From assembly GCA_041664925.1 (NCBI GenBank), contig JBAYJV010000002.1:8302-72301 (forward strand): a stretch of 64,000 bases of DNA, given 5' to 3'. Source of the DNA: Minisyncoccota bacterium (GTDB lineage Bacteria; Patescibacteriota; Minisyncoccia; JBAYJV01). The notes beneath the pieces were generated by a model. It searched no databases. It saw only the letters and a list, made by a program, of their open reading frames with translations, and was not told the origin of the DNA. Below are positions 1-47,484 of the stretch, piece after piece. Each line of letters starts with the position of its first letter. Positions within the stretch are counted from its first letter, which is position 1. Position numbers and translations under genes: made by a program.

Positions 1-159
1 CTCATTCACAGCAAAGATGACAAAGTTGTTTCGTTTAAAGATTTTGAAAAATACAAAAAAGATCTGCCCATGGCAGAAACTATGATTTTTGAAGATCGAG
101 GCCATTTTGATCAACCCGAATTTCCTGAAGTTGTTGGGAAAATTAAAGAAATAGTTTAA
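1..159 (+). CDS. C-terminal fragment of an alpha/beta-hydrolase-like protein (5' partial, runs off window start)
   Basis: Frame 1 is open from nt 1 to TAA at 157-159 and translates to ...HSKDDKVVSFKDFEKYKKDLPMAETMIFEDRGHFDQPEFPEVVGKIKEIV*. The tail with conserved H is typical of alpha/beta-hydrolase C-termini. Confidence 0.4.
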   Translation, partial: LIHSKDDKVVSFKDFEKYKKDLPMAETMIFEDRGHFDQPEFPEVVGKIKEIV

Positions 160-161
160 AA

Positions 162-785
162 ATGAACATAAAAATCGCTCTTTCAATTCTCTCATCTGTA
201 ATAGGAATTGTAGCTTTCCTTCCGTACATCTCTGATGTAATTAAAAAAAAGACGCGACCACATATATTTACATGGTTGATTTCTTCTATTACTCAAGGAA
301 CGGCAACTGCCGGCATTTGGTATGGAAAAGGAGGAACAGGGGCGATAGCTTTAACGATTGGAACTTTTTTTGTAATATTAGTATTCTTTTTATCTCTTCG
401 TAATGGGAAAAAAGACATAGCTCGCATAGACATCGCCTTTCTTGCTATTGCTCTTGGTGCTATCTTTATTTGGTGGTTATTGGATTTACCAGTATTATCT
501 ATTTTTTTAGTGACTGGCATTAGAATAATTGGATATGTCCCAACATTCAGAAAGTCATATAAAAATCCTTGGATTGAAACGATTTTTGCTTGGGGAACTT
601 GGGCTATTGGCGATATTTTGATAATTCTTGCCTTAGAACAATATAATTTATTGACTCTAGCATTTGTTTCTATGCTTACTATGGTAAATGGAGGAATGTT
701 CATACTTCTTTTAGTAAGAAGAAAAAAAGTTCCGATTAATCAATCCGAATTTCCTGAAATTGTTGAAAAAATTAAGAAAGTTTAA
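162..785 (+). CDS. Polytopic membrane protein (6-7 predicted TM helices), function unknown. Its last 13 aa are encoded by a diverged duplicate of the upstream gene's 3' end.
   Basis: 207-aa ORF, strongly hydrophobic with TM-like segments. The C-terminus SEFPEIVEKIKKV mirrors the upstream EFPEVVGKIKEIV. Confidence 0.55.
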   Translation: MNIKIALSILSSVIGIVAFLPYISDVIKKKTRPHIFTWLISSITQGTATAGIWYGKGGTGAIALTIGTFFVILVFFLSLRNGKKDIARIDIAFLAIALGAIFIWWLLDLPVLSIFLVTGIRIIGYVPTFRKSYKNPWIETIFAWGTWAIGDILIILALEQYNLLTLAFVSMLTMVNGGMFILLLVRRKKVPINQSEFPEIVEKIKKV

Positions 786-1581: not shown

Positions 1582-2418
1582 ATGGCAAAAAATAATAAAA
1601 AACAAATAGCGATTTTTGAAGGCAAGAAAATTAGGCGAATTTGGGATGAAAAAAAAGAACTTTGGTATTTTTCGGTAGTGGATATTGTTGATGCGTTAAA
1701 CGCGAGCAAAAACCCAAGAAATTATTGGAAAGTACTCAAAAACCGCTTAAAACATGAAGGAAGTGAGGTGGTTACAAAATGTAACCAACTGAAAATGCAA
1801 GCCGTTGATGGTAAGTTTTATCTGACCGACTCTGCTGATACAGAAACAATGTTTAGAATTATTCAGTCAATTCCATCACCCAAAGCCGAACCATTTAAGC
1901 TTTGGTTAGCACGAGTTGGTTATGAAAGAATCGAAGAAATAAACGATCCGGAAAGGGCGCTTAATCGCAGTCGAAATTATTGGCAAAGAATGGGACGAAG
2001 TCAAAAATGGATTCAGCAAAGAATGATGGGACAAGAAATCAGAAATAAGCTGACGGATTATTGGAAAGACAACGAAGTTAAGAAACAGGACGAATATGCG
2101 ATTTTAACCAATATTATTCACGAGGAATGGAGTGATTTGTCGGTAAAAGAACATAAAAATTTAAAAAGATTAAAGACAGAAAATTTGCGCGATCATATGA
2201 CAGATGCGGAATTGGTATTTACGGCATTGGCGGAACTTTCTACTCGTCAGATTGCGGAAACCATGGAAACTAGGGGACTGGAAGAGAATAAAATACCAGC
2301 TAAGAAGGGTGGTCGCGTTGCCAAAAATGCGCGCTTGGAATTGGAGCAAAAAACTGGCAAAAAAATAGTTTCAGGAGAAAATTTTAAATTTCCAATTTCA
2401 AGAAAGCGATTACGATAA
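1582..2418 (+). CDS. DinD-like DNA-damage-inducible protein (Bro-N domain family)
   Basis: From [14 protein letters not shown]... The protein resembles E. coli DinD: N-terminal Bro-N-like segment ([37 protein letters not shown]) and C-terminal region (...NIIHEEWS...[20 protein letters not shown]...). The ORF-track start at 1537 overlaps a hairpin, so the internal ATG at 1582 is preferred. Confidence 0.55.
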
Positions 2419-2944: not shown

Positions 2945-4234
2945 ATGTCATCTAACTACAATGCAAAATTAATAGCTGATCTTTATGCAACTAGCGATTG
3001 GAAAAGGGCAATCCGTCTTTCTGATGAAATGGTTGAGATTGGCGATAATATATTCCCAAGACAGATATACGAAGCCTACAAAAAATTCCAGAATACTACG
3101 ATTTCTCATTATTTCGTGTCTGACCTTACAAGCTTTAAAACTAGCGATGCTATCGAAATATTGAAAGAAATAGCGCATAAAACCAGCAGATCAGCCGATA
3201 TTTCTATGATGGTGGACTATTTTATTGATATCGGATATTTTGAGTCAGAGATTGTCGTCAAGGTAAAAAACTTATTTCGTGCAGACATGAACTCAAAAGA
3301 TATTCGAGGATATGACATAGAAACATATTCTGCTTATCTCAAAAAAGCAGACAAAGAGACGAGTAATCTGGAATTATTTTTACGGGAATGTTTTGAGGAT
3401 GAAGAACAAGAAATTGATGCAAGGAAAACAGCGCTCGAAGAACTTTTAAAGTTAAAACCAAAAGAATATATTAATTTTTATTACGATAAATACGATTCTA
3501 TTAAGGGAAAGAAAACGGAAAATATTTTTGTAGAACAAATTTCTACCTGGCACGGAGGAATTGTACCCAAACTTCATCAGAAAATACTCGAAATCGGATC
3601 TGAAAGAGCTAAAGAAATATTACAGAATGAACAATCTAGAATAAAAAAAGAAAAACAATCTGAAGAGATGAAAGAACAAGAGGAAATAAAGAGGCAGTAC
3701 GAAACCGCAGACGTGCTTCACGATATAGGAAAATTAAGATTAAACATAAATAAAACTAGTATTGCTGACGAGAGATTTGGGTTCTCTTTTTTCTCACAAT
3801 CAGAAGAAATTTATCAACAAGTGAAACCGGCAAAGACCAAAAATGAATTCGTTGGTTGTTGTATTGTATTACGATCTTTTCTTAATGATTTTGATAAGCA
3901 AATTACAGAATTAAAAATTTCTGAAGAAAGGGGCAAAGAAATATTGCCCAACATAGAGAAATTTAGTGGAAACATAAACAAATTTCATTTTATGCTTAAA
4001 GAAAAAGGCTTAAATATTGACCAAGATATTTTTGGTCTCAGAAACATAAATTGCATTGTTTCAAAATTCGCTCATCCTGGTAAAAAAACTAATCTTGAAA
4101 TTAATAAGATTCTTAAAAAAGAAGTCTTATTGTTTAAGTATTATAAAGAAAATAACTGGTCAGCGCTGCACAGGGAGGTTTTGTTAAAATACAAAAAAGT
4201 ATTAGAGGAATTAATGAAGGTCATGGCAATGTAA
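2945..4234 (+). CDS. Hypothetical protein (429 aa, Lys/Glu-rich, predicted soluble)
   Basis: Long uninterrupted ORF in the local coding frame. No recognisable motif. Confidence 0.55.
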   Translation: MSSNYNAKLIADLYATSDWKRAIRLSDEMVEIGDNIFPRQIYEAYKKFQNTTISHYFVSDLTSFKTSDAIEILKEIAHKTSRSADISMMVDYFIDIGYFESEIVVKVKNLFRADMNSKDIRGYDIETYSAYLKKADKETSNLELFLRECFEDEEQEIDARKTALEELLKLKPKEYINFYYDKYDSIKGKKTENIFVEQISTWHGGIVPKLHQKILEIGSERAKEILQNEQSRIKKEKQSEEMKEQEEIKRQYETADVLHDIGKLRLNINKTSIADERFGFSFFSQSEEIYQQVKPAKTKNEFVGCCIVLRSFLNDFDKQITELKISEERGKEILPNIEKFSGNINKFHFMLKEKGLNIDQDIFGLRNINCIVSKFAHPGKKTNLEINKILKKEVLLFKYYKENNWSALHREVLLKYKKVLEELMKVMAM

Positions 4235-4271: not shown

Positions 4272-4823
4272 ATGACTCTAAAAAACATTATTGAAAAGAG
4301 GAGGAGTGTTAGGAAATTTAAAGCGGATGAGAAAGTTCCGAAAGATTTGATTAATGAATTGATTGATGCTGCTCGGTTGGCACCGTCAGCTTGCAATGCC
4401 CAACCTTCCAGATTTATTTTAATCGAAGACGACAAAACAAAAGAATTACTCAAGGAAAATAACATTTTCAGGCAAGCGTTTGTTTATGAAGCACCGTTAA
4501 TTATTGTTTGTCTTGGCGATGCGAGCGTGTTTCCCAAAGAAAGATTAGAGAAAAATTATGGCAGTTTTGATGAAGAAGTTTTGGGAGATGTGGGGGCAAT
4601 CAGAGATGTGGCTATCGCCACGCAAAATTTGGTTTTAATGGCGACAGAATTGGGATTGGGAACTTGTTATATTGGACTCGTAGATCGAAAGAAAATAAAA
4701 GAAATCTTGGAAATTCCTCAAAACTATGTTTTGCCATTTGTGATTATCACGGGCTATCCGGCCGAAGAACCTAAATCCTCGCCAAGAAAAAGCGTAAAAG
4801 AAGTTATTATTAAAAATTTATGA
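4272..4823 (+). CDS. Nitroreductase-family protein
   Basis: EKRRSVRKF...LIDAARLAPSACNAQP signature of the NADH/flavin nitroreductase fold. Size is 183 aa. Confidence 0.8.
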   Translation: MTLKNIIEKRRSVRKFKADEKVPKDLINELIDAARLAPSACNAQPSRFILIEDDKTKELLKENNIFRQAFVYEAPLIIVCLGDASVFPKERLEKNYGSFDEEVLGDVGAIRDVAIATQNLVLMATELGLGTCYIGLVDRKKIKEILEIPQNYVLPFVIITGYPAEEPKSSPRKSVKEVIIKNL

Positions 4824-5518
4824 AAATATTTATTACCGGCAGTTCCGGTTATATCGGAAGCGAATTAATTAATTATTTAGGCGAGAAGCACGAAATCATT
4901 GAATATGACTTGGCTTTGAGACAAGACATTTTGGATTATGAAAAATTAAAAGAAGCGATGAAAGGTTGCGATATTGTAGTTCATTTGGCTGCTATTCGCG
5001 GACCTGACGAAACCAAAACATTTTCCGATTATTTTAAAGTTAATTGCCAAGGCACTTTTAATGTTGTAAACGCTGCGATTGAAAATAATATAAGAAGAAT
5101 GGTTTATGCCAGCTCAACCGGTTATTATGGACTAGAAAGAGGCGTGCCTTATATAAAGCCGATTAAAGAATCAAATTCTATCATCACTCAACATCTTAAA
5201 GCTGAGGATTTAAATTGCCGAGATTGCGATGTTGCCTATTCAACGAGCAAAGTTATTGCCGAACAAATTCTTGCCAATTATGGGTTAAGAAAGAAAATAG
5301 AAGTGATAATTTTAAGATTAGGTCCGATTGGAGGGAAAAAGGGCGAAAGTTGGGGAATTGATGGAATTAAATTAAAAATGGGGAATGCTTTGCAGGCTCT
5401 TGAAGAAGCGATTACGACCGATAAAAAATTATGGTACGAGGCGTTTACGATTACCGATGAATCAGAAAATGTTGATCTTACTAAAGCTAAAGATATTTTA
5501 GGATACAAGCCAGTTTAA
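4820..5518 (+). CDS. NAD-dependent epimerase/dehydratase (SDR family)
   Basis: MKIFITGSSGYIGSEL Rossmann GxxGxxG start and YxxxK-like active-site region (YSTSK). The ATG overlaps the upstream TGA (ATGA). Confidence 0.75.
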   Translation: MKIFITGSSGYIGSELINYLGEKHEIIEYDLALRQDILDYEKLKEAMKGCDIVVHLAAIRGPDETKTFSDYFKVNCQGTFNVVNAAIENNIRRMVYASSTGYYGLERGVPYIKPIKESNSIITQHLKAEDLNCRDCDVAYSTSKVIAEQILANYGLRKKIEVIILRLGPIGGKKGESWGIDGIKLKMGNALQALEEAITTDKKLWYEAFTITDESENVDLTKAKDILGYKPV

Positions 5519-5715
5519 AAATTTATCGAAGTAAAAATTTATCGAAGTCGGACTTCGATAAATTTGGCTGTTGAGGTCTGACCTCAACACTATAAGAAAA
5601 AGCGTAAAAGAGATTATTATTAAAAATTAATGTGCGGAGGTTCGTTCTTCGCACTTTTTATTTTTATAATATTTTTTTGTGGTAAAATAGAATATTAACT
5701 TGGTAATTTAAAAAT

Positions 5716-6321
5716 ATGTTTTTAACGAATAATAGTTTTTTCCATTTCCTTTTTTTTCTTATAGTTGCAATAGCAATTCTGATTTTGATAGCGCTGAAAT
5801 TATTGGTATTTTTTAAAATATCGAAACGATTTGACAAAACAATTCTTTTTAAAAAGATAGCAATATTTTTCTTTTTATATGAGGCATTATATTTTCTTTT
5901 CGTTTTAATCTATCCAACAGATATAAATTTTATCTTTAATCATTCTTCCGCCACAGTTCTTCTTTCTTCAATACCACTAATCCTTGTGTCATGCTTATTT
6001 TTCTTTTTAATCAATCGCTTTATGAAATTATTCAATCTCAAAAAAGCAATTGCAGTTTTTCTTTTAATGTTTTTTATCGCTACCCCTATTCTTTCTGTGG
6101 TCATTGGAAAAATTGCTACGACAATAAATTTTAAAATAGCAACAGGACATAATTTATCTTTAAGCGATGGGTCGTCTCTTTTTATTTTAGATCCATTGTT
6201 ATACCCTCCTTTCGGATCCTATCAAACTACTGCTCTTATAATTAGAAAAATTGGAGATAGCTTGGGAGAAGGCGCTGTAATTAAGGACATACTAATGGGT
6301 ATTTTTGCTAGTACGGAGTGA
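5716..6321 (+). CDS. Hypothetical integral membrane protein
   Basis: 201 aa, Phe/Leu/Ile-rich with several TM segments. A TTG..TAAAAT-like promoter lies upstream (5672-5700). Confidence 0.45.
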   Translation: MFLTNNSFFHFLFFLIVAIAILILIALKLLVFFKISKRFDKTILFKKIAIFFFLYEALYFLFVLIYPTDINFIFNHSSATVLLSSIPLILVSCLFFFLINRFMKLFNLKKAIAVFLLMFFIATPILSVVIGKIATTINFKIATGHNLSLSDGSSLFILDPLLYPPFGSYQTTALIIRKIGDSLGEGAVIKDILMGIFASTE

Positions 6322-6445
6322 TATCTGAAACAATAGAGGCAGACTTGGGACTTTTTTGTATATTTATACAAAATTTACGGAGGACGGACCTCCGTAAATT
6401 AAAAAAATCTCCCGCAACTTTATGCGGGAGTGATTTTCTATATTT

Positions 6446-7364: not shown

Positions 7365-7393
7365 ATATGTGGGAGGCTCAGCCTCCCACATAT
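7365..7393. repeat. Extended GGAGG-loop-CCTCC palindrome (ATATGTGGGAGGCTCAGCCTCCCACATAT), left flank of small-membrane-gene cassette
   Basis: Counterpart ATATGTTGGAGGTGAGACCTCCAACATAT at 7871-7899 on the right flank. Same family at 20978-21005, 21049-21079, 21130-21158, 6366-6386, 44221-44245 and elsewhere. Confidence 0.5.
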
Positions 7394-7610: not shown

Positions 7611-7859
7611 ATGTTCGAGATGGTTTTTGTCATGTGGCTACAGTTAGCACTTGGTCTTTATGTATTGGGATGGATGTTTTATGTTATCTTAAGATTGGTT
7701 GGCGCTATTGCGCCTTGTCCTAGCCTTGGAATAGTGAATGACCTCGTATTGTTTTCTGCGTTGTCACTTTCAATTCTCTTAGTAGTTCTTTCTTTAATTT
7801 GGTGCAGAATCATAGAGCCCATAATTGAATGGCGCGATAGAAAAAAGCATCAATACTAA
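7611..7859 (+). CDS. Small membrane protein (82 aa, 2 TM)
   Basis: An internal ATG 6 nt after AAGGAGG is preferred over the 7491 start, which overlaps a repeat hairpin. The conserved leader lies upstream. Confidence 0.5.
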   Translation: MFEMVFVMWLQLALGLYVLGWMFYVILRLVGAIAPCPSLGIVNDLVLFSALSLSILLVVLSLIWCRIIEPIIEWRDRKKHQY

Positions 7860-7974
7860 GCCTAGTCAATATATGTTGGAGGTGAGACCTCCAACATATT
7901 TTATTCTATTCTTGACTTTTTTTGGAAAAATAGTAGGATAAGGGAAGGAGGAAGTCCTTCGACTTTGCTCAGGA

Positions 7975-8029
7975 CCTAAGAGCTTTTAAGCTCACAAAAG
8001 TTCGCTAAAAATCTCTAAGGGAGGGCTGT
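7975..8029 (+). promoter_or_regulatory. Conserved leader instance b (serves 8030-8449); near-identical to instance a
   Basis: CCTAAGAGCTTTTAAGCTCACAAAAGTTCGCTAAAAATCTCTAAGGGAGGGCTGT-ATG. Confidence 0.5.
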
Positions 8030-13285: not shown

Positions 13286-13334
13286 ATTTATTACATAAAA
13301 AAATCCACGCACTTTCTTATGCGTGGGTTTTGTT

Positions 13335-13655
13335 TTATTTTCTTTTAGGAGTTATCACGAGAATGATAAATTTCATAAGGGAAAGGAAAGCAAATCCTCC
13401 TTGGACGATAATCTCTCCTAACAGACTTAATGTCCTGTCAGGATATGGGAACCAGATAGAGACAGCGGGAGATTTATACTGAGTCCACAAGGTAATCGTA
13501 TTGAATCCCAATAGCAGAGTTACGATAATCCAAAAGATTCGTGATTTTTCTAATGGTCTGATGAAAAAAAACACCAAACCAATTCCCAAAAGACCGATTA
13601 TTCCAGCAATAGTGCTCCACATTACAAGAGTATCCCAAGCAACTTGGCTTTCCAT
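13335..13655 (-). CDS. Small integral membrane protein (106 aa, ~4 TM)
   Basis: Hydrophobic ORF downstream (minus sense) of the 75-bp repeat that carries TTGACA-N17-TAGACT. Confidence 0.45.
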   Translation of the reverse strand: MESQVAWDTLVMWSTIAGIIGLLGIGLVFFFIRPLEKSRIFWIIVTLLLGFNTITLWTQYKSPAVSIWFPYPDRTLSLLGEIIVQGGFAFLSLMKFIILVITPKRK

Positions 13656-13671
13656 ATTTTTCTCCTTTATT

Positions 13672-13751
13672 TTGTTTTAAGAACTGATATGAGTCTATCA
13701 TATACACATAATTTGTCAAGAAAATCTTACGAAGTCGGACTTCGTAAGATT
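13672..13751. repeat. 75-80-bp direct repeat copy 1 (promoter module TTGACA-N17-TAGACT on minus strand + CGAAGTCGGACTTCG hairpin)
   Basis: Near-identical to 14193-14272. Each copy precedes a minus-strand gene. Each is also paired with a copy of terminator AAAAAAATCCACGCACTTTCTTATGCGTGGGTTTT (13286-13325 and 13763-13800). Confidence 0.6.
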
Positions 13752-13849
13752 GTTTGTAAGATAAAAAAATCCACGCACTTTCTTATGCGTGGGTTTTTGA
13801 TTTCTTTTATTTCTCTTATTTCTCTTTAGAGGATTGATTCATGTTTCGA

Positions 13850-14179
13850 TTATCGAATTTCCACTAAGTGATGGAAGATTCTACGCACTTTGCCATCTTT
13901 AACTCCAAGTTTTGCAAGACCAGAAAGTATACGCGATTTGTGTTTCATAGACCAAAAACCACGAGTATTTTCGTGAAGATCTCTTTGAAGTAAAAAGGTG
14001 TTTACTGTCAAGATTAGGAAATCACCACTTTGTAAGCGAGCCAATGGACCACGTTCCGCAACTTTCATTTTTAAAGGATCAGATTGAGTAATTTCTGCAA
14101 TGTATAATTCTGTCATGCCCACGATGTTAATAACCACTAAGTCGCCAACTTGCATTGAGCACGGAAAAAAACTTTCCAT
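13850..14179 (-). CDS. Hypothetical protein (109 aa)
   Basis: The internal ATG (MESFFPCSMQVGD...) is preceded by AAGGAGG. The longer track ORF runs through the upstream repeat and promoter. The same 75-bp promoter-bearing repeat as the previous gene lies upstream. Confidence 0.45.
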   Translation of the reverse strand: MESFFPCSMQVGDLVVINIVGMTELYIAEITQSDPLKMKVAERGPLARLQSGDFLILTVNTFLLQRDLHENTRGFWSMKHKSRILSGLAKLGVKDGKVRRIFHHLVEIR

Positions 14180-14192
14180 CCCTTCCTCCTTA

Positions 14193-14272
14193 TATTTTAA
14201 GAACTGATATGAGTCTATCATATACACATAATTTGTCAAGAAAATCTTACGAAGTCCGACTTCGTAAGATTT
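14193..14272. repeat. 75-80-bp direct repeat copy 2
   Basis: TTAAGAACTGATATGAGTCTATCATATACACATAATTTGTCAAGAAAATCTTACGAAGTCCGACTTCGTAAGATT. One substitution relative to copy 1. Confidence 0.6.
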
Positions 14273-14338
14273 TTTAAATAAACAATTGACATTAAAATTA
14301 AGTTTTGTTAGAATATTGTCAGTACCAAAGGAGGCGTT

Positions 14339-20977: not shown

Positions 20978-21158
20978 AAAAATCGGAGGCTCAGCCTCCG
21001 ATTTTCTACAACTGGCAATGGTTTAAACAATTCAATAAAAAAAACGAGATATGTGGGAGGCTCAGCCTCCCACACATATGTTAGTTTTCTGCGAAGTATT
21101 CAATAATCAAGTCGAAAGATTGAATAGATAAATATTTGGAAGTCTCACTTCCAAATAT
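20978..21158. repeat. Three consecutive GGAGG/GGAAG-loop-CCTCC/CTTCC palindromes in one intergenic region
   Basis: AAAATCGGAGGCTCAGCCTCCGATTTT; ATATGTGGGAGGCTCAGCCTCCCACACATAT; AATATTTGGAAGTCTCACTTCCAAATATT. Confidence 0.5.
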
Positions 21159-30128: not shown

Positions 30129-31028
30129 TCAGGAGCATGTTGCTGCTTCCAGCTGTCCCAGTAAACGGCTGTACTTTGGATGAGCTTCAAGCCACATTCT
30201 AATCTTTTCAAGCGATTCTTTTTCAATCTGACGAGCTCTTTCGCCAGAAATCCCATGCTGTCTGCCTATTTCCTCGAATCCTTGTTCTTCTCTTGAAGGA
30301 TTCATTCCGTAACGCGCCCTTAGGACGGCTGCTTCCCTTTGAGAAAGACCCAAGACCATCGCTTCAGAAATAAGCCTTCTTATAGAACTGTTTCTGATCT
30401 CTTCTCCGACAACTTTTTCTGGAGAAAAAGTTTCATCAATAATACCATTAACTTCAGCGGTCTCATCAGGGTCACTTTTAATGGGCGTGTCTAAAGACAG
30501 CACATCAAAAACTCCAAGAGCGGCGATTAAAGTTTTGGGATTAATCTTATTCTTTCTAGCAAAATCTACTATCGCTATTTCGGTATTACTATTGAGTCTT
30601 GCGTCGGGATGTTCTCTTGCGAATTTGACGATTGACCACTTAATATTTTGAGGCAATCTAATAGGAGAGGATATATCGTGAAGTTTTCTCCCAATCGTAT
30701 CGTCAATCCACCAAACTGCGTAAGTTGATGGTTTGCTGCCTTTTGTTGAGTCGAATTTTGCCGATGAATCGTAAAAAACACGAAGCAAAACTAAATAACA
30801 GTCATGAAGTAAATCAGCAATAGTTTCTTCGTCATTAAAGGTTTGGATCTTTACGAAAATTCTCTTAAGGATTAGCTTGGTCATGCTTAAAACTAAGCGT
30901 GCACAAGCTTCTTTATCGCCATTTCTGGCCTTTTTGGCTAGTTCTAATTGTTCTTCTTTTCTTTGAATTTCTGTGAACAAGCTTTTTTCTGGCATCTGGA
31001 CATGACTCTCAATCGTCGCTAGTGGCAT
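30129..31028 (-). CDS. Sigma-70 family RNA polymerase sigma factor (divergent paralog 1)
   Basis: Region 2 (STYAVWWIDDTIGR) and region 4 HTH (LSQREAAVLRARYGM...EEIGRQHGISGERARQIEKESLEKIR). Confidence 0.75.
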   Translation of the reverse strand: MPLATIESHVQMPEKSLFTEIQRKEEQLELAKKARNGDKEACARLVLSMTKLILKRIFVKIQTFNDEETIADLLHDCYLVLLRVFYDSSAKFDSTKGSKPSTYAVWWIDDTIGRKLHDISSPIRLPQNIKWSIVKFAREHPDARLNSNTEIAIVDFARKNKINPKTLIAALGVFDVLSLDTPIKSDPDETAEVNGIIDETFSPEKVVGEEIRNSSIRRLISEAMVLGLSQREAAVLRARYGMNPSREEQGFEEIGRQHGISGERARQIEKESLEKIRMWLEAHPKYSRLLGQLEAATCS

Positions 31029-31267
31029 TGAACATCCTCCTTTAGAATTTCCTTCTGAATGTAATGAAGAGTAGAAATTCTTAAGCCCTTCCGTAGCTTC
31101 GGCTTGCCCTGCCTACCCTGCCTACCGGCAGGCAGGCGGAGCGTAGAAGGGTAATAATTTTTTAACACTAGACTGTATTTTCATTATTAAAGAACAATAC
31201 TTGCCAACAATACTAACATATTTTTATAAAAAAGCAACCCTCCTACGCACCAGTATAAAAACAATTA

Positions 31268-31385
31268 TCCCTGAAACCCCGCACCAGTATCCTGCAGCAG
31301 AATAAATTCGCTTCAGGACAAGTAAATACGGTGCGGGGTTGTGATTGCGTATTCCTTCATAAATTCAGGAACGCACTCAATAACA
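31268..31385 (-). repeat. ~115-bp composite element copy 1 (minus orientation): TTATTGAGTGCG..CGCAATCA hairpin + long ACCCCGCACC(N~45)GGTGCGGGGT hairpin
   Basis: The reverse complement matches 35041-35156 almost base for base. Confidence 0.5.
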
Positions 31386-31478
31386 AAAAGGAGAGGGAAG
31401 CTTTCTTCCCTCTCTGGTCCCGCTTGCCATGTAGCGAGACGCCCCGAGCACTCCGCAAAGGAGGTTCGACAACGGTGC
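31385..31478 (-). ncRNA. Candidate small RNA D (promoter + intrinsic terminator unit)
   Basis: Minus-sense TTGACA (31507-31512), 16-nt spacer, TACAAT (31485-31490), then ~90 nt ending in GGAGAGGGAAGAAAGCTTCCCTCTCC + T-run (31390-31416). A DnaA-box-like TTATCCACA abuts the -35. Confidence 0.3.
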
Positions 31479-31533
31479 TTCTTTATTGTACCAAACACCT
31501 AGCCTCTGTCAAGAGATATTGTGGATAAGTTAA

Positions 31534-31896
31534 TCAAAGCGTCTTTAGAAAAGAACGAAACTTAAACTTAAAAAAGTATCTTGCGAAGAAAACGCTGATT
31601 GCGACGGGAATTGCTAGGCCGAGAAATGGCGAAACAAGGACAACTGTTCCTCCAAGAATCGTTTTATTGGTGTAGTTTTCCTTCGTAAGTAAATAGATAG
31701 CAAGATCGAATGTAATGTACATCGCAGCGGCTAGATTTAACAGAAGACCGAAGCCGATTGTCGTAATCATTTTCCCTGAAAAACCTGTAAATTGAAGTAT
31801 GATAACCAAAAGAACCGTTTCTATAATCAATGACGGAAAAAGAACTTTATAAATAAACTCTCGCAAAAACTGATCATTCTTATCCTGCGTCTTCAT
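31534..31896 (-). CDS. Small integral membrane protein (120 aa, 3-4 TM); leader-class cassette gene
   Basis: Conserved leader on minus strand (31897-31960) with SD AGAGAGGTG. Preceded further upstream by a CCTGCCTACCGGCAGG hairpin. Confidence 0.5.
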   Translation of the reverse strand: MKTQDKNDQFLREFIYKVLFPSLIIETVLLVIILQFTGFSGKMITTIGFGLLLNLAAAMYITFDLAIYLLTKENYTNKTILGGTVVLVSPFLGLAIPVAISVFFARYFFKFKFRSFLKTL

Positions 31897-31960
31897 GTTT
31901 TCACCTCTCTTAGAGATTCTTGCTGAATGACAGTGAAATTAGAAGCTCTTTACCCTGAGC
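31897..31960 (-). promoter_or_regulatory. Conserved leader instance e (serves 31534-31896)
   Basis: TAAAGAGCTTCTAATTTCACTGTCATTCAGCAAGAATCTCTAAGAGAGGTGAAAAC-ATG. Confidence 0.45.
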
Positions 31961-32266
31961 TTGTCGAAGGGTTAGACCCCGGCTTGCCCTGCCTACCGGC
32001 AGGCAGGCGGGACTACACTTGCAACTCTTTCATTATAAAACAAAAAGAAGGAAAGTCAAATGTAAACCTGTTAACCGTTAAGCGTAAACCGTGAACCGCA
32101 AACCTCGCATTTCGCGATTAACGAATAACGACTAATTTTCTTGCCCTTCCGAAGCCCTGCCTACCGGCAGGCAGGCTTGTGCGTAGGAGGGTTGCATTTT
32201 AATCAAAATGTGCTAGTATCGTTGGCAGTTATCATGGTTCTTTAATATTAACAAAGGAGGGGGGGG

Positions 32267-33256
32267 ATGATTGGACAACTAGAAGTTCTCTATGCTTATT
32301 TCAGAGAAATTAGCAGAACTCCTCTTTTAACCAAAGAAGAAGAAATTGAATTGGCTAAAAAAATTGCTCAAGGAGACAAAGAGGCAAAAGAAAAATTTAT
32401 TAGAGCTAATCTGGGATTAGTTGCTTCAATTGTACAAAGATATAGAGTAAGAGATTCTCATTTAAGTTATTTTGACTTGATCCAAGAAGGAACATTGGGC
32501 TTAATTAGGGCGGTTGAAAAATTTAATCCTTGTAAAGAATGTAGATTTGCTAATTATGCCGCTTGGTGGATTAGACAATCGGTCTTGGTGGCAGTAGCAA
32601 AACATAGTAACAATATTAGATTGCCATGGGATGCAAGACGGTTGGTTTCCAAATTTACAAGAGAGAGTTCTGACGTAGGACTTAGTATGACTAACGGCGC
32701 GATGGCAGATTTTTGCAGAAAACACGCTGGAACCAATCGTAAGATACTAATCGCTGCTCTCGGGGCTTATAATAATATTGTGTGCTTGAATTTATCTATT
32801 GGCTGCGATGACAGTGATGCTATTGAAAGACAAAGCCTAAGAGAGATTCCTATTGAAGAGGATGGATTTGGAGATACCAATACCATAAAAATTGTTCTTG
32901 TTTCTCAAGAAGCAATTTCCTTGATGACCATAATTGGCGATGATGGAGATGCTCCCGAAGAGTATGTTTTAGGCGAGCAAAATCCTCAAGAAGATGAGCT
33001 CAGAAAATTGCGCAAAAAAGAAATCTTAGAAAAGGCGATGAATGCTGTTCTTAATTCTAGAGAAATAGATGTTCTCACCTTGCGATTTGGATTGGGAGAC
33101 ATAAAAGAACTAACTCTTCAAGAAGTAGCAGAGCAATATCATCTTTCTCGAGAAAGAATCAGACAGATTGAAAAAAATGCTCTTGAAAAAATTAAATGTT
33201 ATCTCAGAGCAGAATATGGAGAACGTATTCATGAATTAGCAAGATACCTTGTGTAA
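32267..33256 (+). CDS. Sigma-70 family RNA polymerase sigma factor (divergent paralog 2, with ~100-aa insertion between regions 2/3 and 4)
   Basis: Region 1.2/2 (LTKEEEIELAKKIAQGDKEAKEKFIRANLGLV...IQEGTLGLIRAVEKF...YAAWWIRQ) and region 4 (LTLRFGL...TLQEVAEQYHLSRERIRQIEKNALEKIK). Confidence 0.8.
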   Translation: MIGQLEVLYAYFREISRTPLLTKEEEIELAKKIAQGDKEAKEKFIRANLGLVASIVQRYRVRDSHLSYFDLIQEGTLGLIRAVEKFNPCKECRFANYAAWWIRQSVLVAVAKHSNNIRLPWDARRLVSKFTRESSDVGLSMTNGAMADFCRKHAGTNRKILIAALGAYNNIVCLNLSIGCDDSDAIERQSLREIPIEEDGFGDTNTIKIVLVSQEAISLMTIIGDDGDAPEEYVLGEQNPQEDELRKLRKKEILEKAMNAVLNSREIDVLTLRFGLGDIKELTLQEVAEQYHLSRERIRQIEKNALEKIKCYLRAEYGERIHELARYLV

Positions 33257-33465
33257 AATGGTAAGCGGTCACTAAAGAATAGTGACCGCATTTATAATCC
33301 TTGCTTTTTCTTATAAATGTGTTAATATGGGGACCTAGAATAGTTCTTTAACTTAATGTAGTCCTACGGTCACGAATAAAGTCCTCCTTCACTAAAGTTA
33401 CGGCGGGACGTAAGAATCTTCATTTCTCGTAAACTCGAAAGAATCTTCTAACGGAGGTGGGAAAA

Positions 33466-34320
33466 ATGTTTGAATGGCAAAAAGGAATTAGAAGCTATCT
33501 TAAAGAAATTGGCAAAATTCCTCTTTTAACTAGAGAACAAGAATTTGCTTTAGCTGAAAGAGTTGCCAACGGAGACAAAAAGGCAACAGAAGAATTTGCT
33601 CTAGCGAATTTGCGATTAGTCGTTTCAGTCGCAAGAAACATTCATTATTATTCTCCCACGCTCAGCATGCTCGATCTGATTCAAGAAGGCAATATTGGTT
33701 TAATGAAAGCTATCGAGAAATTCGATCGCCATAAAGGCTATAAATTCTCCACATACGCGAAATGGTGGATTTGGCAAGCGATTTTGAGAGCAATATCGGA
33801 TCATGGTAGAGACATAAGACTACCGTCTCATATACTTGAATCAATTCGCAAGGCTCAAAGGAAAATTTCTCAAGAGAAAGATAGAGAAGAGGATCCAAGA
33901 GATTTAGGAGAAATTCTTGAAGAAGACGGATTGAGCGATGCGAGTATTGTTGGGATTATCTCTGCTACTCGCGGAAGACTTTCTTTGGATGTTGAACTTG
34001 GAGAAGACGGAGAAACTTTTGAAGAATATGCTGATGGCAAGCAACCTTCTCAAGAAGATGAATTTAATGCATTGAGAAAAAGAGAAATCATAAAAGAGGC
34101 GATAAATGAGACTCTTGATGATAGAGAGAAGGATATTATTAACTTGCGATTTGGGATGGATGGGACAAAAGCATTAACTCTTAAAGAAATATCAGCTCTG
34201 CATGATATTAGTCGAGAAAGAATTAGGCAAATTCAAATAAAAGCTCTTAGAAAGATCGGACACTATATTGAAACAAAATATAGGGAGCAAATGACGGACA
34301 TAGAAAAAGCGTTTTTATAG
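33466..34320 (+). CDS. Sigma-70 family RNA polymerase sigma factor (divergent paralog 3)
   Basis: LLTREQEFALAERVANGDKKA...ANLRLVVSVAR...IQEGNIGLMKAIEKFD...YAKWWIWQAI and region 4 (INLRFGM...TLKEISALHDISRERIRQIQIKALRKI). ATG is 5 nt after GGAGGTGG. The ORF track used the GTG at 33457. Confidence 0.8.
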   Translation: MFEWQKGIRSYLKEIGKIPLLTREQEFALAERVANGDKKATEEFALANLRLVVSVARNIHYYSPTLSMLDLIQEGNIGLMKAIEKFDRHKGYKFSTYAKWWIWQAILRAISDHGRDIRLPSHILESIRKAQRKISQEKDREEDPRDLGEILEEDGLSDASIVGIISATRGRLSLDVELGEDGETFEEYADGKQPSQEDEFNALRKREIIKEAINETLDDREKDIINLRFGMDGTKALTLKEISALHDISRERIRQIQIKALRKIGHYIETKYREQMTDIEKAFL

Positions 34321-38675: not shown

Positions 38676-41600
38676 ATGATTAAAAAACGATACAACAAAA
38701 TATTATTAAGCAGCTTAACGATCTTAATGCTCGTTTTGCAGACTTGTAGTTTTGGAACAACGAATGTTTTGAATACTTTTAAGGTGGAAAAATCTCTTGC
38801 CAATGATATGTGTTCTGTTGACACGGATACGATTTTAATTATGGACAGGTCTGGTAGTATGGCGGATGGAGCAGCTCAAAGCAAATGCGAATGGTGGAGA
38901 ATGGAATGGGTAGTTAATACTTTTCAATGGGTTTTTCATACGGATTACAATGTAACACAAGAATGGTGTAGTGCAAAAAATCTTCCAAATCCAAGAAATT
39001 CAGTATTTTATCCTGCAGTTAAAAGTAAGATTCAGAATGCCAAAGATGCAGCGGATACATTTTTGGATAATTTTAAATCAAATGATCAAAGCGCCTTGGT
39101 GTCTTACGCGACCACTGCAACTCTTGACAAAACTCTTTCAAATAATCATGCCTCCACACTTACGGCCGTCAACGCTTTAACGCCTTCAGGCGCAACAAAT
39201 ATCGGCGATGCCATCAAATTAGGCATCCAGGAATTATCGTCTGTGAGAGCCCGAGCGCAGGCGACAAAAGCGATGGTGCTTTTAACGGATGGCTTGGCAA
39301 ACAAACCCAACGGCGATGGACAAAATGAAAATCCCTTGGATGTCGCTTATGCTGAATCTCAGGCAACAATCGCTGCTGGTCTTGGTTATAAAATCTTTAC
39401 CGTCGGATTGGGTGACGATGGACAAATTGACCAAACAATGTTACAAAATATTGCGACGATTACGGGTGCGACTTATCACCATGTGCCCAATGGCAGTGAT
39501 TTATCGCCAATTTATGATGAAATAGCTTATCAAGTTTGTCAATACGGTTCAATCTCGGGTTGCAAATACGAAGACAAAAATAATAACAGCGCTCTTGACA
39601 ATGGCGAAGAAGGATTGTCTGGCTGGGAAATGGTTTTATCCACCGGCACCTCGACGACTTTATATCAAGACACCGATCAAAACGGTTGTTATCAATTCGC
39701 TGGACTGACCGATGGCAGCTATGCTATCTTCGAAGGTCCTAATTTGGACAAAGGCGACTTCACGCTTACCAGTCCGAGCGTCAACCTCTACGACAATTTA
39801 ATTATTTCAAATCATAACAATATCGCTGATATTGACTTTTTGAATTATTTACCTTCTTGCGGAAACAGCATTACTGATAGTAGCGAACAATGCGATGATG
39901 GTAATTTAATTGATGGCGACGGCTGTTCAGTGACTTGTACGACCGAACAAATTGATTGCGATCAAATCGGTTCAACAGAAATTTCCCGCGAATGCTCTTC
40001 TGACGGCGAAGCTAGCGTTACTTATGCTTGGAATAACGATCAATGCGGTCAAAACTACACTCAAGATGAAACAGATTCTTTGTGCGCTTGTCAAGCGTCA
40101 GATACCGGAGTACAAGGCGAGTGCGTTTCTAATGGCGAGAGACAGCATTACTATACATACAATTACGAATACTGCGGCGCGGATTACGAAGAACCTCAAG
40201 CCGATGCAACTTGCAATTGCGTTGCTTCAGAATCAGGTAGAGAATGTGTCGGCGATAATTCCGCAGAAGTTACCTATTCATACAATTACGATTTTTGTGA
40301 AGCGGATTATACCGAGACTAAAGAAGATTTATCTTGCGGGTCTGAATATCAATGCGGCGATTGGCAAGACGAAGAATGTGTTGATAATGCCTTGAGACAG
40401 CAAACCCGAACTTGCGAGGATCAATATGGAACTTCTTATCCAGAATCGCGATCAGTCAGTGATGATACTTGCGGCTGCCAATCTTCAGAAACAGATCGAA
40501 CTTGCGCAGGCGATGGTTACGCCGATGTCAGCTTCACTTACAATTTTGGATATTGCGGAACGGATTATCAGTCCCAAGAAACTGATAGCTCTTGCGGCTG
40601 TCAGTCATCAGACACTAATCAAGAAGGTGAATGTGTGGGAGATGGCTTGAGGCAACATTATTTTACATACAATTACGGTTACTGCGGCTCAGATTTTGAA
40701 AATCCCCAATCCGATCCGACTTGCGCTTGTGTCGCCTCTGAATTATCAAGAGAATGTAAAAATTCTTCTGAAGCGGACGTAACCTATTCTTATAATTTTG
40801 AATATTGCGGAGCAAATTATACTCAAACCGAAGAAGATTTATCCTGCAATTCGGATTATGAATGTAGCGCTTGGGAAGATGGCGATTGTTCAGGTGATGG
40901 AACAAGAGAACAATCAAGAACTTGCGAAGATCAATACGGAAGCTCTTATCCAGATTCGCGATCAACCAATGATGCTGCTTGCGGATGTGTTGAGACGGAA
41001 GTTTCAGGATCTTGCACGGACACAACTTACAGAGAATTTACTTTCACTTACAATTTTTCATACTGTACTCAAAAACCAGCTGAACAAAGAGATGACTCAA
41101 GCTGTGGCGGTGGAGGCGGCGAGACCTGTGAATATTCTACTTGGCAAGACGGTGAATGTTATGCCGATGGAATGAGACAACAAACGAGAACTCAAACAAA
41201 CACTCTTGACGGTTGCACCGATTTAACACAGAATATTTCAGACACTTCTTGTGATTGTGTTGAGACGGAAGTGCAAGGATCTTGCACAGACACAACTCAC
41301 AGAGAATTTACTTTCACTTATAATTTTTCATATTGCACCCAAAAACCAGCTGAACAAAGAGTTGACTCAAGTTGCGGCGGTGGTGGGGGAGGCGGTGATA
41401 GTCTCGGTTCTATTTCTGGTTGTAAATATTTAGATGCAAATTATAATTATAATATTTTAGACGATACCGTGACACTTTCCGGTTGGGACATATTATTATC
41501 GGGTTCGGCTAGCACAACCACGGCGACTGATGTTAATGGTTGTTATATTTTCAGAGATTTATCGGCAGGAACTTATCAAGTAAAGGAAGGTGTTAATTTT

Positions 41601-42881
41601 AGCAAGATGCCGTTTATCCAAACTTATCCGACAAGCACGCCGACATATAATTTTACTCTTGGAGAAAGCGAGGATAAATTAAATATAAACTTTGGCAATT
41701 ATTTGCCCGTCTGCGGAAATGGAGTTTTGGATAATAATTATAATGAAAAATGCGATGACGGCAATTTAACCGATGGCGATGGCTGTTCAAAAACTTGCCA
41801 AGTAACTTATCAATGTAATGACGGTGTTGATAATGATGACAACGGCAAGATTGATTATCCCGAGGATTCAGGGTGTTCAAGCTCAACTGATAATACTGAA
41901 AAAACCGAATCTTCAGGTGGCGGTGGCGGCGGATCGGTGATTCTTCCACCTGTGGCAGAACTTAATATATTTAATGAAGGCGAAAGCGTCGGCGGCGATA
42001 TTGCCCATTTCATATGGGAAACCAATCTTAATTCCAACAGCACAATTATTTATTCAGCTGAGGACGAAGGCCATGTTTTAAATAAAAATAATCCAGGGCT
42101 TTACGGCTATGCCCATTCCTATAAAAATCCCAGCGATGACTTAGGTGTGATTTTGCACAGTGTAGATATTCCATGGCTTAGAGTTTGCACAACTTATTAT
42201 TATAGAGCAGTTTCAATGACTGGATCCGTCGGCACAGCTTTTGGCAACGAAAGATCATTTAAGACTCTTTGCCCAGCGACGATTGTTGAGCCGATACCTT
42301 CCGGGGTGGGTGGTCCGACAGGGGAGTTGGGCGAAGTTAAAGTCGTAACTCCTGTAGTAGAACAAACTGAACCGGAAGTTACCCATTCGACAAGCTCAGG
42401 GCAAGCAACTCCAGAAGAAATTGCTCAAACAAATGGCGGATTTTTGGCAAGTCTCGCGAATCTTCTTAATGGTTTTGGCGGAACGTGTTTTGCTGGTTTT
42501 CCTTGGTGGCTGATCTTCGTCTTCGCTCTCTATCCTGCTTTTAAAATTTACGAAGCTTACAGACAGAAAAATAAAAGACATTCGCTTTTCTCTTGGGTTG
42601 CCTTATTTATTGTCCATATCGCATTGGCGCTTGCTTTCTACTTTGCGAATGTGTTGATTATTTTTATCTGGGTTTTCCTTGCGCTTGGATTTGCCAACTT
42701 TTTCACTAACTATTTTGTATCATTTAGAAAAGAAGAAGATAAAAATATATTTCTTGTTGAACTTCTGACGATTTTAATTTTAGAAATTCTTACTCTAATT
42801 CTTAGTTGTCTTTATCTCTGGCTGGTCTTATTTATTCTTTTGATCTGTTTGGCGATTACCCTTTCATTTAAGAAAAAATAA
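38676..42881 (+). CDS. Giant surface protein (1401 aa). Domain order: signal peptide, vWA (MIDAS) domain, SdrD-B/Cna-B-like domains, ~10 Cys-rich repeats, two Myxococcus-type Cys-rich (DUF4215-like) repeats, poly-Gly linkers, C-terminal polytopic membrane anchor.
   Basis: vWA: ILIMDRSGSMAD ... TNIGDAIKLG ... MVLLTDGLAN. DUF4215-like: CGNSITDSSEQCDDGNLIDGDGCSVTC and CGNGVLDNNYNEKCDDGNLTDGDGCSKTC. SdrD-B-like: ISGCKYEDKNNNSALDNGEEGLSGWEMVL...DQNGCYQF. Repeated ...C..D...R...TYNY.YCG.DY....D..C modules. C-terminal ~150 aa form multiple TM helices. Confidence 0.75.
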   Translation: MIKKRYNKILLSSLTILMLVLQTCSFGTTNVLNTFKVEKSLANDMCSVDTDTILIMDRSGSMADGAAQSKCEWWRMEWVVNTFQWVFHTDYNVTQEWCSAKNLPNPRNSVFYPAVKSKIQNAKDAADTFLDNFKSNDQSALVSYATTATLDKTLSNNHASTLTAVNALTPSGATNIGDAIKLGIQELSSVRARAQATKAMVLLTDGLANKPNGDGQNENPLDVAYAESQATIAAGLGYKIFTVGLGDDGQIDQTMLQNIATITGATYHHVPNGSDLSPIYDEIAYQVCQYGSISGCKYEDKNNNSALDNGEEGLSGWEMVLSTGTSTTLYQDTDQNGCYQFAGLTDGSYAIFEGPNLDKGDFTLTSPSVNLYDNLIISNHNNIADIDFLNYLPSCGNSITDSSEQCDDGNLIDGDGCSVTCTTEQIDCDQIGSTEISRECSSDGEASVTYAWNNDQCGQNYTQDETDSLCACQASDTGVQGECVSNGERQHYYTYNYEYCGADYEEPQADATCNCVASESGRECVGDNSAEVTYSYNYDFCEADYTETKEDLSCGSEYQCGDWQDEECVDNALRQQTRTCEDQYGTSYPESRSVSDDTCGCQSSETDRTCAGDGYADVSFTYNFGYCGTDYQSQETDSSCGCQSSDTNQEGECVGDGLRQHYFTYNYGYCGSDFENPQSDPTCACVASELSRECKNSSEADVTYSYNFEYCGANYTQTEEDLSCNSDYECSAWEDGDCSGDGTREQSRTCEDQYGSSYPDSRSTNDAACGCVETEVSGSCTDTTYREFTFTYNFSYCTQKPAEQRDDSSCGGGGGETCEYSTWQDGECYADGMRQQTRTQTNTLDGCTDLTQNISDTSCDCVETEVQGSCTDTTHREFTFTYNFSYCTQKPAEQRVDSSCGGGGGGGDSLGSISGCKYLDANYNYNILDDTVTLSGWDILLSGSASTTTATDVNGCYIFRDLSAGTYQVKEGVNFSKMPFIQTYPTSTPTYNFTLGESEDKLNINFGNYLPVCGNGVLDNNYNEKCDDGNLTDGDGCSKTCQVTYQCNDGVDNDDNGKIDYPEDSGCSSSTDNTEKTESSGGGGGGSVILPPVAELNIFNEGESVGGDIAHFIWETNLNSNSTIIYSAEDEGHVLNKNNPGLYGYAHSYKNPSDDLGVILHSVDIPWLRVCTTYYYRAVSMTGSVGTAFGNERSFKTLCPATIVEPIPSGVGGPTGELGEVKVVTPVVEQTEPEVTHSTSSGQATPEEIAQTNGGFLASLANLLNGFGGTCFAGFPWWLIFVFALYPAFKIYEAYRQKNKRHSLFSWVALFIVHIALALAFYFANVLIIFIWVFLALGFANFFTNYFVSFRKEEDKNIFLVELLTILILEILTLILSCLYLWLVLFILLICLAITLSFKKK

Positions 42882-44179: not shown

Positions 44180-44249
44180 AAAAAGTTTACTTGCGCAAAC
44201 TTCTTTTGACGGAAGAATGATTTACGGAGGTCCGTCCTCCGTAAATTTT

Positions 44250-46182: not shown

Positions 46183-46194
46183 ACTTATATCATC

Positions 46195-46383
46195 GTCATC
46201 CTAAGAACATAGTCATCTTGAGGTCGCCTAAGGCGACCGAAGAGTCTCGGGATTCTTCACGGAGTTTATCCTGAGAAACTCGAAGGGTTCAGAATGACAG
46301 ACGCACACGGGATTCTTCGTGGAATTTATAGTGAGCTTGCCTGTGGTGAGCTTATCGAATCCATCGAACTACTCAGAATGACA
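46195..46383. mobile_element. MITE-like elements (one complete at 46195-46298, one truncated to 46383) between LTD-protein and SipW genes
   Basis: GTCATCCTAAG...TTCAGAATGAC, then ...CTCAGAATGACAC. Interiors share GATTCTTCACGGAGTTTATCCTGAGAAACTCGAAGG with the 47571 copy. Confidence 0.4.
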
Positions 46384-46839
46384 CTTTATTTTTCTAACCT
46401 CACTAAAAATTACTACCAAGCAGGGAATTGACAAGAGAATAATAATTCCAATCGGAGTTCTCGTCAGATTAAAAATATAACCGAGATAAGGGACTGCCAA
46501 AACAACTTTTCCCAAGATTTGATCTTGCCTGATTTTTTTTAAATCAGAACTAGGATTAGCATCGCCTCTGGTGGTATATAAATTTTCATCTTTGTTAAAG
46601 ATGCGATGAGTGATTTTTCTTTGGTGATTTTCCTTTTCAAAAAATGTTATAACATCTCCTATTTTGTATTCTGCCATTCTCAAAATAACAATAATACCTC
46701 CTTGTCTGATAGCGGGCGCCATTGATCCAGAAGTGACCATAAGTATTTTATGAGGAGCGCTGGGTAAAAGCGAAGTCAATAAAAACAAAACCAGCGCTCC
46801 CAAAAACCAATAAAAATACTTTGTCGTTAGTCTTTTCAA
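46369..46839 (-). CDS. sipW: Signal peptidase I, SipW/archaeal-ER type (S26B)
   Basis: TSGSMAPAI (catalytic Ser), RIFNKDENLYTTRGDANPSSD (TKGDNNxxxD signature), VPYLGYI. Confidence 0.75.
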   Translation of the reverse strand: MKRLTTKYFYWFLGALVLFLLTSLLPSAPHKILMVTSGSMAPAIRQGGIIVILRMAEYKIGDVITFFEKENHQRKITHRIFNKDENLYTTRGDANPSSDLKKIRQDQILGKVVLAVPYLGYIFNLTRTPIGIIILLSIPCLVVIFSEVRKIKCHSE

Positions 46840-46851
46840 GATATTTCTAGA

Positions 46852-47472: not shown

Positions 47473-47484
47473 GGTTTTTATACT

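Follow-up and report, generated by a model that had tools for sequence, protein, structure and literature searches.

We describe here a short duplication in a 64-kb stretch of DNA (hereafter the window) from the genome of an uncultivated Candidatus Paceibacterota bacterium (candidate phyla radiation (CPR)/Patescibacteria), where a gene of the NAD-dependent epimerase/dehydratase family directly follows a nitroreductase gene and a 39-nt copy of the nitroreductase 3′ end stands beyond the epimerase gene as a dead stub. We consider it very probable that this repeat is the scar of a gene-gain event that was not site-specific, and that it has no function of its own; the scar is real and informative, and it is not a new kind of element. 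The reading of the epimerase gene as an insertion is supported because the nitroreductase gene and ORF201 (open reading frame (ORF) of an orphan membrane protein, further downstream) appear, from the gene orders compared, to form an old adjacency, because the epimerase is a widely shared, "floating" gene, and because a relic of the former nitroreductase 3′ end lies beyond it.

The nitroreductase gene (4272-4823, plus strand, 183 aa) and the epimerase gene (4820-5518, plus strand, 232 aa) were both taken from the ORF list, the former together with its translation, and match Pfam families PF00881 (E 9e-32) and PF01370 (E 2e-23), respectively. The TGA stop of the first overlaps the ATG of the second in an ATGA at 4820-4823. 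Both the gene identities and this overlap had been given in a preliminary description of the DNA and are borne out. Copy 1 of the repeat (4784-4822, plus strand) encodes the last 12-13 nitroreductase residues (..RKSVKEVIIKNL) and ends with the epimerase ATG, while copy 2 (5594-5632, plus strand) is non-coding with the old frame kept, the epimerase gene being situated between the two. The copies are identical at 36 of 39 positions, with a start-to-start spacing of 810 nt, and a pattern search allowing up to three mismatches found exactly two sites in the window and none in 100 dinucleotide-preserving shuffles. The preliminary description, which had placed the repeat at 4782-4823 and 5587-5630, was thus right about its existence and about 5 nt off in the second coordinate, since copy 2 starts at 5592/5594 and ends at 5632.

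Copy 2 lies outside every listed plus-strand ORF of at least 50 aa, in agreement with its earlier labelling as non-coding, and in the old frame it reads I-R-K-S-V-K-E-I-I-I-K-N-stop (TAA). The three differences between copies 1 and 2 are GAA/GAG (synonymous), GTT/ATT (Val/Ile) and TTA/TAA (Leu/stop). At the Ile codon (ATT/ATA), copy 2 is closer than copy 1 to the nitroreductase tails of two relatives, L004 (86%) and L185 (75%); with three sites separating the copies, these tails fit alleles or drift alike. A further 12-nt perfect direct repeat, TTAAAAATTTAT, lies at 4810-4821 (plus strand) and again at 5515-5526, over the epimerase stop, with 11 nt of it at 5532-5542; it is an AT-rich gene-boundary motif and possibly a microhomology (E 0.027, weak on its own).

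How common such tail duplications are was assessed in 66 window genes, the terminal 55 nt of each being aligned to its own downstream 3 kb. Only the nitroreductase gene (score 31.5) and a Ser_hydrolase gene (score 30; case 1, discussed below, the nitroreductase locus being case 2) stand out against a null of about 10-14 (means about 10-12), the sole higher null score, 60, being a query matching itself. Tail duplication is thus seen in 2/66 window genes, both inside one ~8-kb variable stretch at the window start, and the 8 kb further upstream of the window hold no additional case (~72 kb of genome covered in all). Two cases in ~72 kb, confined to one ~8-kb stretch, and one more in L004 do not sustain the earlier proposal of a recurrent mechanism, and a genome-wide pattern is not seen. 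In a second assembly from another sample (L186), the locus is 99.89% identical over 15.4 kb with zero indels and no structural variant; the described structure is therefore fixed in that population.

The region beyond the epimerase gene is compact. The 75 nt from the epimerase stop to the stub consist nearly entirely of two hairpins, which had been noted previously and are indeed perfect palindromes: H1 (5535-5565), with 15-bp arms and a GTCGGAC centre, and H2 (TGTTGAGGTCTGACCTCAACA, 5569-5589), with 8-bp arms. A 16-nt tandem duplication, AAAATTTATCGAAGT, present in two copies (5518-5549, plus strand), leads into H1, and the novel joint lies 4 nt past H2. Copy 2 then runs without a gap into GTGCGGAGGTTCGTTCTTCGCAC and a T-run, which belong to an intrinsic terminator (GTGCGGAGG..CTTCGCAC plus T-run; 5632-5664, plus strand, hairpin 5632-5654 plus tail). 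This is the only canonical plus-strand terminator between the nitroreductase/epimerase genes and ORF201, and it is followed by a promoter-like stretch and then by ORF201 itself (promoter region and gene, 5676-6321, plus strand). Since copy 2 adjoins this terminator, with the promoter-like stretch and ORF201 next, the stub looks like an old gene end still joined to its terminator, and we infer that the terminator at 5632-5664 is the original one of the nitroreductase gene.

Comparison with relatives supplies the two gene orders from which such a structure could be assembled. In L004 (also L014), the same nitroreductase-ATGA-epimerase pair occurs, and nucleotide homology to the window (88.9%) extends from 2 nt before the nitroreductase ATG to exactly the epimerase stop, downstream of which the sequence is unrelated, with no stub, no terminator and no ORF201. 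In L185, the nitroreductase gene is followed, 5 nt past its stop, by an unrelated 126-aa gene and then by the ORF201 promoter and N-terminus, matching window positions 5676-5825 with 73% identity over 150 nt (E 1e-23). This truncated copy is the only match of ORF201, for which the protein search returned no other homologue. Nitroreductases that are at most 77% identical stand in other contexts with no adjoining epimerase. The synteny of L185 (a different gene in between), of L004 (no relic) and of these more distant relatives (no epimerase) thus upholds the preliminary view that the epimerase gene was inserted. The window joins the two arrangements that relatives carry singly, nitroreductase-ATGA-epimerase (L004) and nitroreductase...ORF201 (L185).

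The epimerase gene itself gives every appearance of a travelling gene. Members of its family (232 aa) from CPR bacteria and DPANN archaea are 60-84% identical, and its neighbourhoods in three further contigs (L174, L177 and L178) are all different, with no bracketing repeats of at least 17 nt around it in any of them; its base composition in the window is not anomalous. The family keeps the same length, is unusually conserved and includes proteins labelled Nanoarchaeota, Diapherotrites and Marsarchaeota, a distribution which suggests that it has spread horizontally and widely among small-genome symbionts. A degenerate tRNA-Gln 3′ copy after the L177 epimerase was considered and dropped as not significant.

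As the route to the present structure, we tentatively favour, at a little under an even chance, recombination through the short shared nitroreductase tail between alternative gene orders. The older locus would have had the order nitroreductase, terminator, ORF201, and DNA already carrying the "nitroreductase tail-ATGA-epimerase-hairpins" arrangement would have recombined into such a chromosome via short nitroreductase homology. A small circular molecule could have entered by a single crossover; alternatively, one end could have joined by homology and the other illegitimately (homology-facilitated illegitimate recombination, HFIR). Both routes would duplicate exactly the stretch common to the two partners. 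Copy 1 would have remained under selection as the enzyme's C-terminus, with a stop/start overlap suited to translational coupling, and copy 2 would persist as a passive stub in the 3′ untranslated region (UTR). The host's own recombination, working on DNA of close relatives, would be enough in a region with such rapid gene turnover, and no dedicated recombinase would be needed. Also in favour of this route, the region is a mosaic, with gene content differing between the window and L004 at nearly every intergenic boundary of the variable stretch, and neither a recombinase domain in the window ORFs scanned nor a motif common to the repeat pairs was found (see below). The left junction looks inherited rather than newly made because the repeat includes the epimerase ATG, and the recombination route is favoured for this locus because both parental orders exist, because the repeat includes that ATG, because L004 has the ATGA without any repeat, and because the stub looks younger than the junction. 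The last of these is a weak point: the nitroreductase-epimerase lineages that share the junction have a synonymous divergence (dS) of 0.40-0.55, and a stub as old as that junction would be expected, by our estimate, to show about 8 differences vs the 3/39 seen, which hints that the joint may be the younger of the two.

Several observations weigh against recombination between alternative gene orders. The age argument rests on three differences (P about 0.05) and assumes neutral evolution of the stub. The duplications are all short and similar (39, about 53 and, in L004, 51 nt), and recombination of random fragments should often give longer ones. L004 lacks H1 and H2 after its epimerase gene and so is not itself of the donor type; among the relatives compared, no other locus has H1/H2 after the epimerase. 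For case 1 and for the relocation of a membrane gene in L004, no donor arrangement was observed, and at least some of the events are therefore de novo illegitimate joins. No empty-site allele, excised form of the epimerase piece or population variant was seen among ~15 billion proteins, from which three hypothetical empty-site nitroreductase variants are absent, or in L186. Among further comparisons, metagenome and genome scans with the nitroreductase returned few close relatives, and between the window and L004 no identity breakpoint, and hence no visible crossover point, was seen within the nitroreductase-epimerase pair. The dS per gene between these two is heterogeneous (0.28-0.94), with both cargo genes on the low side, which is not decisive.

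Case 1, independently verified, has the same architecture, as the preliminary description had claimed. Its first copy is the Ser_hydrolase 3′ end (..FDQPEFPEVVGKIKEIV-stop; 107-159, plus strand). The inserted gene (162-785, plus strand), encoding a 207-aa membrane protein, starts two bases past the Ser_hydrolase gene and ends in ..INQSEFPEIVEKIKKV-stop, its last 16 residues (736-785, copy 2) being the Ser_hydrolase tail fused in frame, with a 3-nt indel between the tail copies. Among 1.8 billion representative proteins, homologues of the membrane protein (207 aa) can be aligned no further than about residue 190 and themselves finish 5-10 residues beyond that point. Because FPE[IV]V also terminates the distant Ser_hydrolase of L174 and the L004 orthologue, we regard this tail motif as native to the Ser_hydrolase family. 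As the homologues stop earlier and the tail is native to Ser_hydrolase, the membrane gene has lost its own end and captured that of the hydrolase. In L004, the Ser_hydrolase gene is directly followed by a hairpin and a Bro-N gene, and the membrane gene with its captured tail is relocated after Bro-N, between a fresh 51-nt direct repeat (49/51 identical; L004 3841-3895 and 4517-4570) that supplies its last three codons and stop. The target duplicated in this L004 event is intergenic and not a gene tail. The captured tail in the window and the 51-nt repeat in L004 thus show two successive joints of the same style on one cargo gene. Comparison by eye of the four hydrolase-type tails (hydrolase and membrane gene, in the window and in L004) gave conflicting informative sites.

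Events of this kind might also be explained by de novo insertion with a true target duplication, through either the fill-in of a staggered break or a replication template switch returning 37-39 nt upstream, for which AT-rich microhomologies where genes start and end would be the guide and the hairpins perhaps the trigger; template switching at the hairpins had also been proposed in the preliminary description. No unseen donor would be called for in any of the three events (39, about 53 and 51 nt), which include the L004 event with its intergenic target and case 1, whose truncated insert continues in frame into the hydrolase tail across a clearly illegitimate joint. The motifs GTTTAAAA(ATG) and AAAAATTTATG at gene ends and starts would provide left-junction microhomologies of 7-12 nt, the end of the repeat coincides with the foot of the terminator hairpin, and that of the insert lies 4 nt past H2. 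On the other hand, the repeat takes in the start codon of the epimerase gene, and L004 has the identical ATGA junction with no duplication, so that of the earlier claim of a target duplication the duplication itself stands while a strict target-site reading is awkward. Furthermore, the insertions of a TauE gene in the window and of the 126-aa gene in L185 occurred without long duplication, and we know of no bacterial process that routinely yields 37-53-bp duplications around arbitrary ORF-sized DNA. We thus regard de novo insertion as possible but rather unlikely for the epimerase locus. A broader possibility, which we find doubtful, is that some Paceibacterota have a hitherto undescribed means of moving single ORF-sized pieces of DNA (0.63-0.81 kb) into gene 3′ ends or terminator regions with 37-53-bp duplications and no element-borne recombinase. 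If so, the pieces would start within 0-10 nt of a start codon, the membrane-gene cassette would have moved twice, and the cause could be a staggered-cut integrase acting in trans or a replication- or retro-type template switch.

Site-specific integration, in the form of an integrase-less cassette whose attachment (att) site mimics the target 3′ end and whose recombinase is encoded elsewhere, in the manner of cis-mobilisable elements or tRNA-targeting islands, would account for the restored target 3′ end with the displaced copy on the far side, as in integrative elements. It would also suit the occurrence of nitroreductase, Ser_hydrolase and epimerase genes in or beside the cassette arrays of other Paceibacterota (L182, L174 and L178); the separators in L182 and L174 include a degenerate tRNA-Trp 3′ end, a signature that has also been reported for tycheposons (bioRxiv 10.1101/2020.12.28.424599). 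Recombinase-mediated integration had also been suggested in the preliminary description; the evidence from the window, however, speaks against it. Pfam searches, limited to the window, found no integrase, transposase, reverse transcriptase or Cas1 in ~50 ORFs, nor did PHROGs reveal any among 10 window ORFs of unknown function. The three repeat pairs share no motif or common core, their pairwise local alignments being no better than those of shuffles (P 0.28-0.86), and terminal inverted repeats were seen neither at the insert ends nor among the 25 longest inverted repeats. The pseudo-tRNA element family of the arrays is absent from the window, which contains no tRNA, and from L004. In addition, the case 1 cargo is truncated at its joint. 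The 39-nt repeats might in theory let the epimerase gene out as a circle, but neither an excised nor an empty form came to light. We consider site-specific integration very improbable. The stub could instead be the last remnant of a second nitroreductase copy, a tandem duplicate or a paralogue, that once stood downstream of the epimerase gene and was otherwise deleted, tandem duplication followed by deletion being common in bacteria and the stub keeping its frame, its stop and its own terminator. This would take a clean deletion on top of no fewer than two or three additional events, and yet the 75 nt before the stub contain no other nitroreductase-like sequence, none of the relatives compared has two copies, and case 1, with its second tail joined onto another gene that is itself truncated, would be left unexplained; we therefore hold it to be very improbable. 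Retention of the stub for a function, for instance as an A-rich terminator arm or as a regulatory RNA segment in the epimerase 3′ UTR, is in our judgement the most far-fetched of these explanations. The stub is better preserved than expected of neutral sequence, and in the predicted fold of 176 nt (z = -6.2) its A/U-rich 3′ half pairs with the U-tract past the terminator hairpin. The low fold energy, however, comes mainly from three perfect hairpins, A/U pairing near a terminator is expected from composition, L004 does without the stub, and Rfam and tRNA scans of the window gave no match.

Compared with known systems, the locus fits the class of insertion-duplication/HFIR scars. In E. coli, a single crossover with a circular molecule duplicated a gene end, with repeats of 109-950 bp (PMC3240628), and HFIR has been invoked to explain a shifted-back effector 3′ end in the type VI secretion system (T6SS) arrays of V. 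cholerae as well as strings of orphaned 3′ regions at Rhs loci (PMC5361080). As in those scars (PMC5361080, PMC3240628), a new gene stands beside a conserved one, a fragment of the old 3′ end is displaced downstream together with the former neighbours, no dedicated recombinase is involved, and both parental gene orders occur separately in relatives, here L004 and L185. The V. cholerae scars concern toxin/immunity modules and orphan immunity genes, whereas here an ordinary metabolic gene in a CPR genome is affected, and the stub is just 39 nt long. Integrative and cis-mobilisable elements, such as dusA-specific islands (PMC4482086) and tycheposons, likewise leave a target gene end on both sides of the insert and the gene intact, and the window shows this restored target end with flanking direct repeats; it differs in having no integrase among the ORFs scanned, no common att core, a single-gene "element" of 0.63-0.81 kb, a different repeat for each event and, in case 1, a truncated cargo.

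The locus is neither an integron cassette nor a transposon, nor has Cas1 produced it. It shares with integron cassettes a single promoterless ORF with a hairpin-forming site behind it in a region of high turnover. No intI was found, however, the palindromes are perfect and lack R''/L''/L'/R' boxes, GTTRRRY was not seen in the boundary sequences AAATTTATGAAAA and CAACACTATAAGAAA, and integron insertion does not duplicate 39 nt of a neighbouring gene. Transposons and insertion sequences (IS) differ in their terminal inverted repeats, none of which was seen at the insert ends, in their transposase, of which the window ORFs scanned contain no domain, and in the fixed length of IS duplications (2-15 bp vs 39-53 nt here), and Cas1-type integration (CRISPR, casposon) differs in that each repeat has two copies and no Cas1 domain occurs in the window ORFs scanned. 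Our literature search returned nothing specific on such footprints in CPR/Patescibacteria, and to our knowledge insertion-duplication footprints of this kind have not previously been described in this phylum.

Hairpins similar to H1 are widespread in this DNA. The window contains 36 perfect GC-containing palindromes with arms of at least 8 bp, a set to which H1 belongs, and 33/36 are intergenic. They group into families with the centres GAAGTCGGACTTC, GGAGGCTCAGCCTCC and GGAGG..CCTCC, and most have no T-run; examples lie at 1548-1566, 5535-5565, 6372-6400, 7365-7393, 7871-7899, 13723-13751, 14241-14273, 20979-21005, 21052-21074 and 44220-44246. L185 also has one such palindrome, ATTGAAGTCGGACTCAAT. 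These intergenic palindromes are probably terminator-like or REP-like elements. Two independent short assemblies of the same strain, Logan contigs L002 and L003, both stop 45 nt past the epimerase stop, inside H1, and their ends probably reflect an assembly break at this 31-nt perfect palindrome and not a biological end.

The arrays in or beside which nitroreductase, Ser_hydrolase and epimerase genes occur (L182, L174 and L178) consist of 1-4-gene cassettes. In L182 (= L012; 59-4260), a tRNA-Trp heads a series of about six small cassettes, beginning with a nitroreductase and a 161-aa gene. The repeats that separate them (67-129 nt) combine a terminator and a promoter with a degenerate copy of the tRNA 3′ end, and no integrase was found within 10 kb. 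The separators of L182 and L174 form one repeat family including a degenerate tRNA-Trp 3′ end. L182 thus shows the organisation of a tRNA-linked array, with a full tRNA at one end and partial 3′ copies between cargo, which the window does not, and the L182/L174 arrays resemble the partial-tRNA signature of tycheposons that the window lacks. In L174, members of the same family (3838-3931 and 4321-4410) flank a small block just downstream of the epimerase gene, and in L178 this gene has just short GGTTCTAA motifs to either side (around 2907 and 3719).

Upstream of the nitroreductase gene the three contigs also differ. In L004, an 83-aa ORF directly upstream (7732-7983) duplicates the N-terminal part of Bro-N (88% nt identity; window 1588-1799); in L185, a Bro-N-like gene end and a family hairpin stand there; and in the window, a 429-aa orphan ORF (2945-4234) takes the place of the Bro-N copy. 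A 54-nt stretch (window 7973-8026, L004 9374-9427; 92.6% identical) lies upstream of different genes, preceding ORF139 in the window and, in L004, a different small ORF between the epimerase gene and a shared bidirectional terminator. Other repeats occur elsewhere in the window. Within 13287-14275, a pair of small genes on the minus strand (13335-13655 and about 13850-14180), though unrelated, share near-identical upstream sequence (81-86 nt at 95-97.5% identity), which takes in a GAAGTCGGACTTC hairpin and the opening codons ATGGAAAG, as well as identical terminators (37/37), and the copies abut with a 3-nt overlap (TTT); the region looks like a duplicated expression cassette with different cargo. 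Dispersed short repeats (GTCATCCTGA.../...TCAGAATGACA and CGGGATTCTTCACGGAGTTTATCCTGAGAAACT) lie in several intergenic regions (window 46190-47650; L004 9250-9330 and 9600-9690), and between the members of one 53-nt pair (89% identical) stand two minus-strand genes (46369-47472). Three sigma-70-family genes are neighbours (30129-31028, minus strand, with a region 4 match only; 32267-33256; 33457-34320), the latter two being paralogues seen as 72-77% nt repeats in the area 30129-34320, and a 1401-aa ORF (38676-42881) is internally repetitive (40132-41389; period about 123-510 nt).

Genomes of CPR bacteria are small, and no mobile-element gene was recognised among the window ORFs scanned, yet close relatives differ sharply in gene content. 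The scars described here are rare direct footprints of single-gene gain in CPR genomes, showing joints at gene 3′ ends and a cargo gene that captured its neighbour's tail and then moved on. If the similar lengths of 37-53 nt are a rule, a new insertion mechanism would be indicated; if they are not, the scars would be an ordinary, if well-documented, example of illegitimate recombination. They also show nitroreductase, Ser_hydrolase and epimerase genes to be part of a flexible pool held in common, which in other Paceibacterota is found in tRNA-linked cassette arrays.

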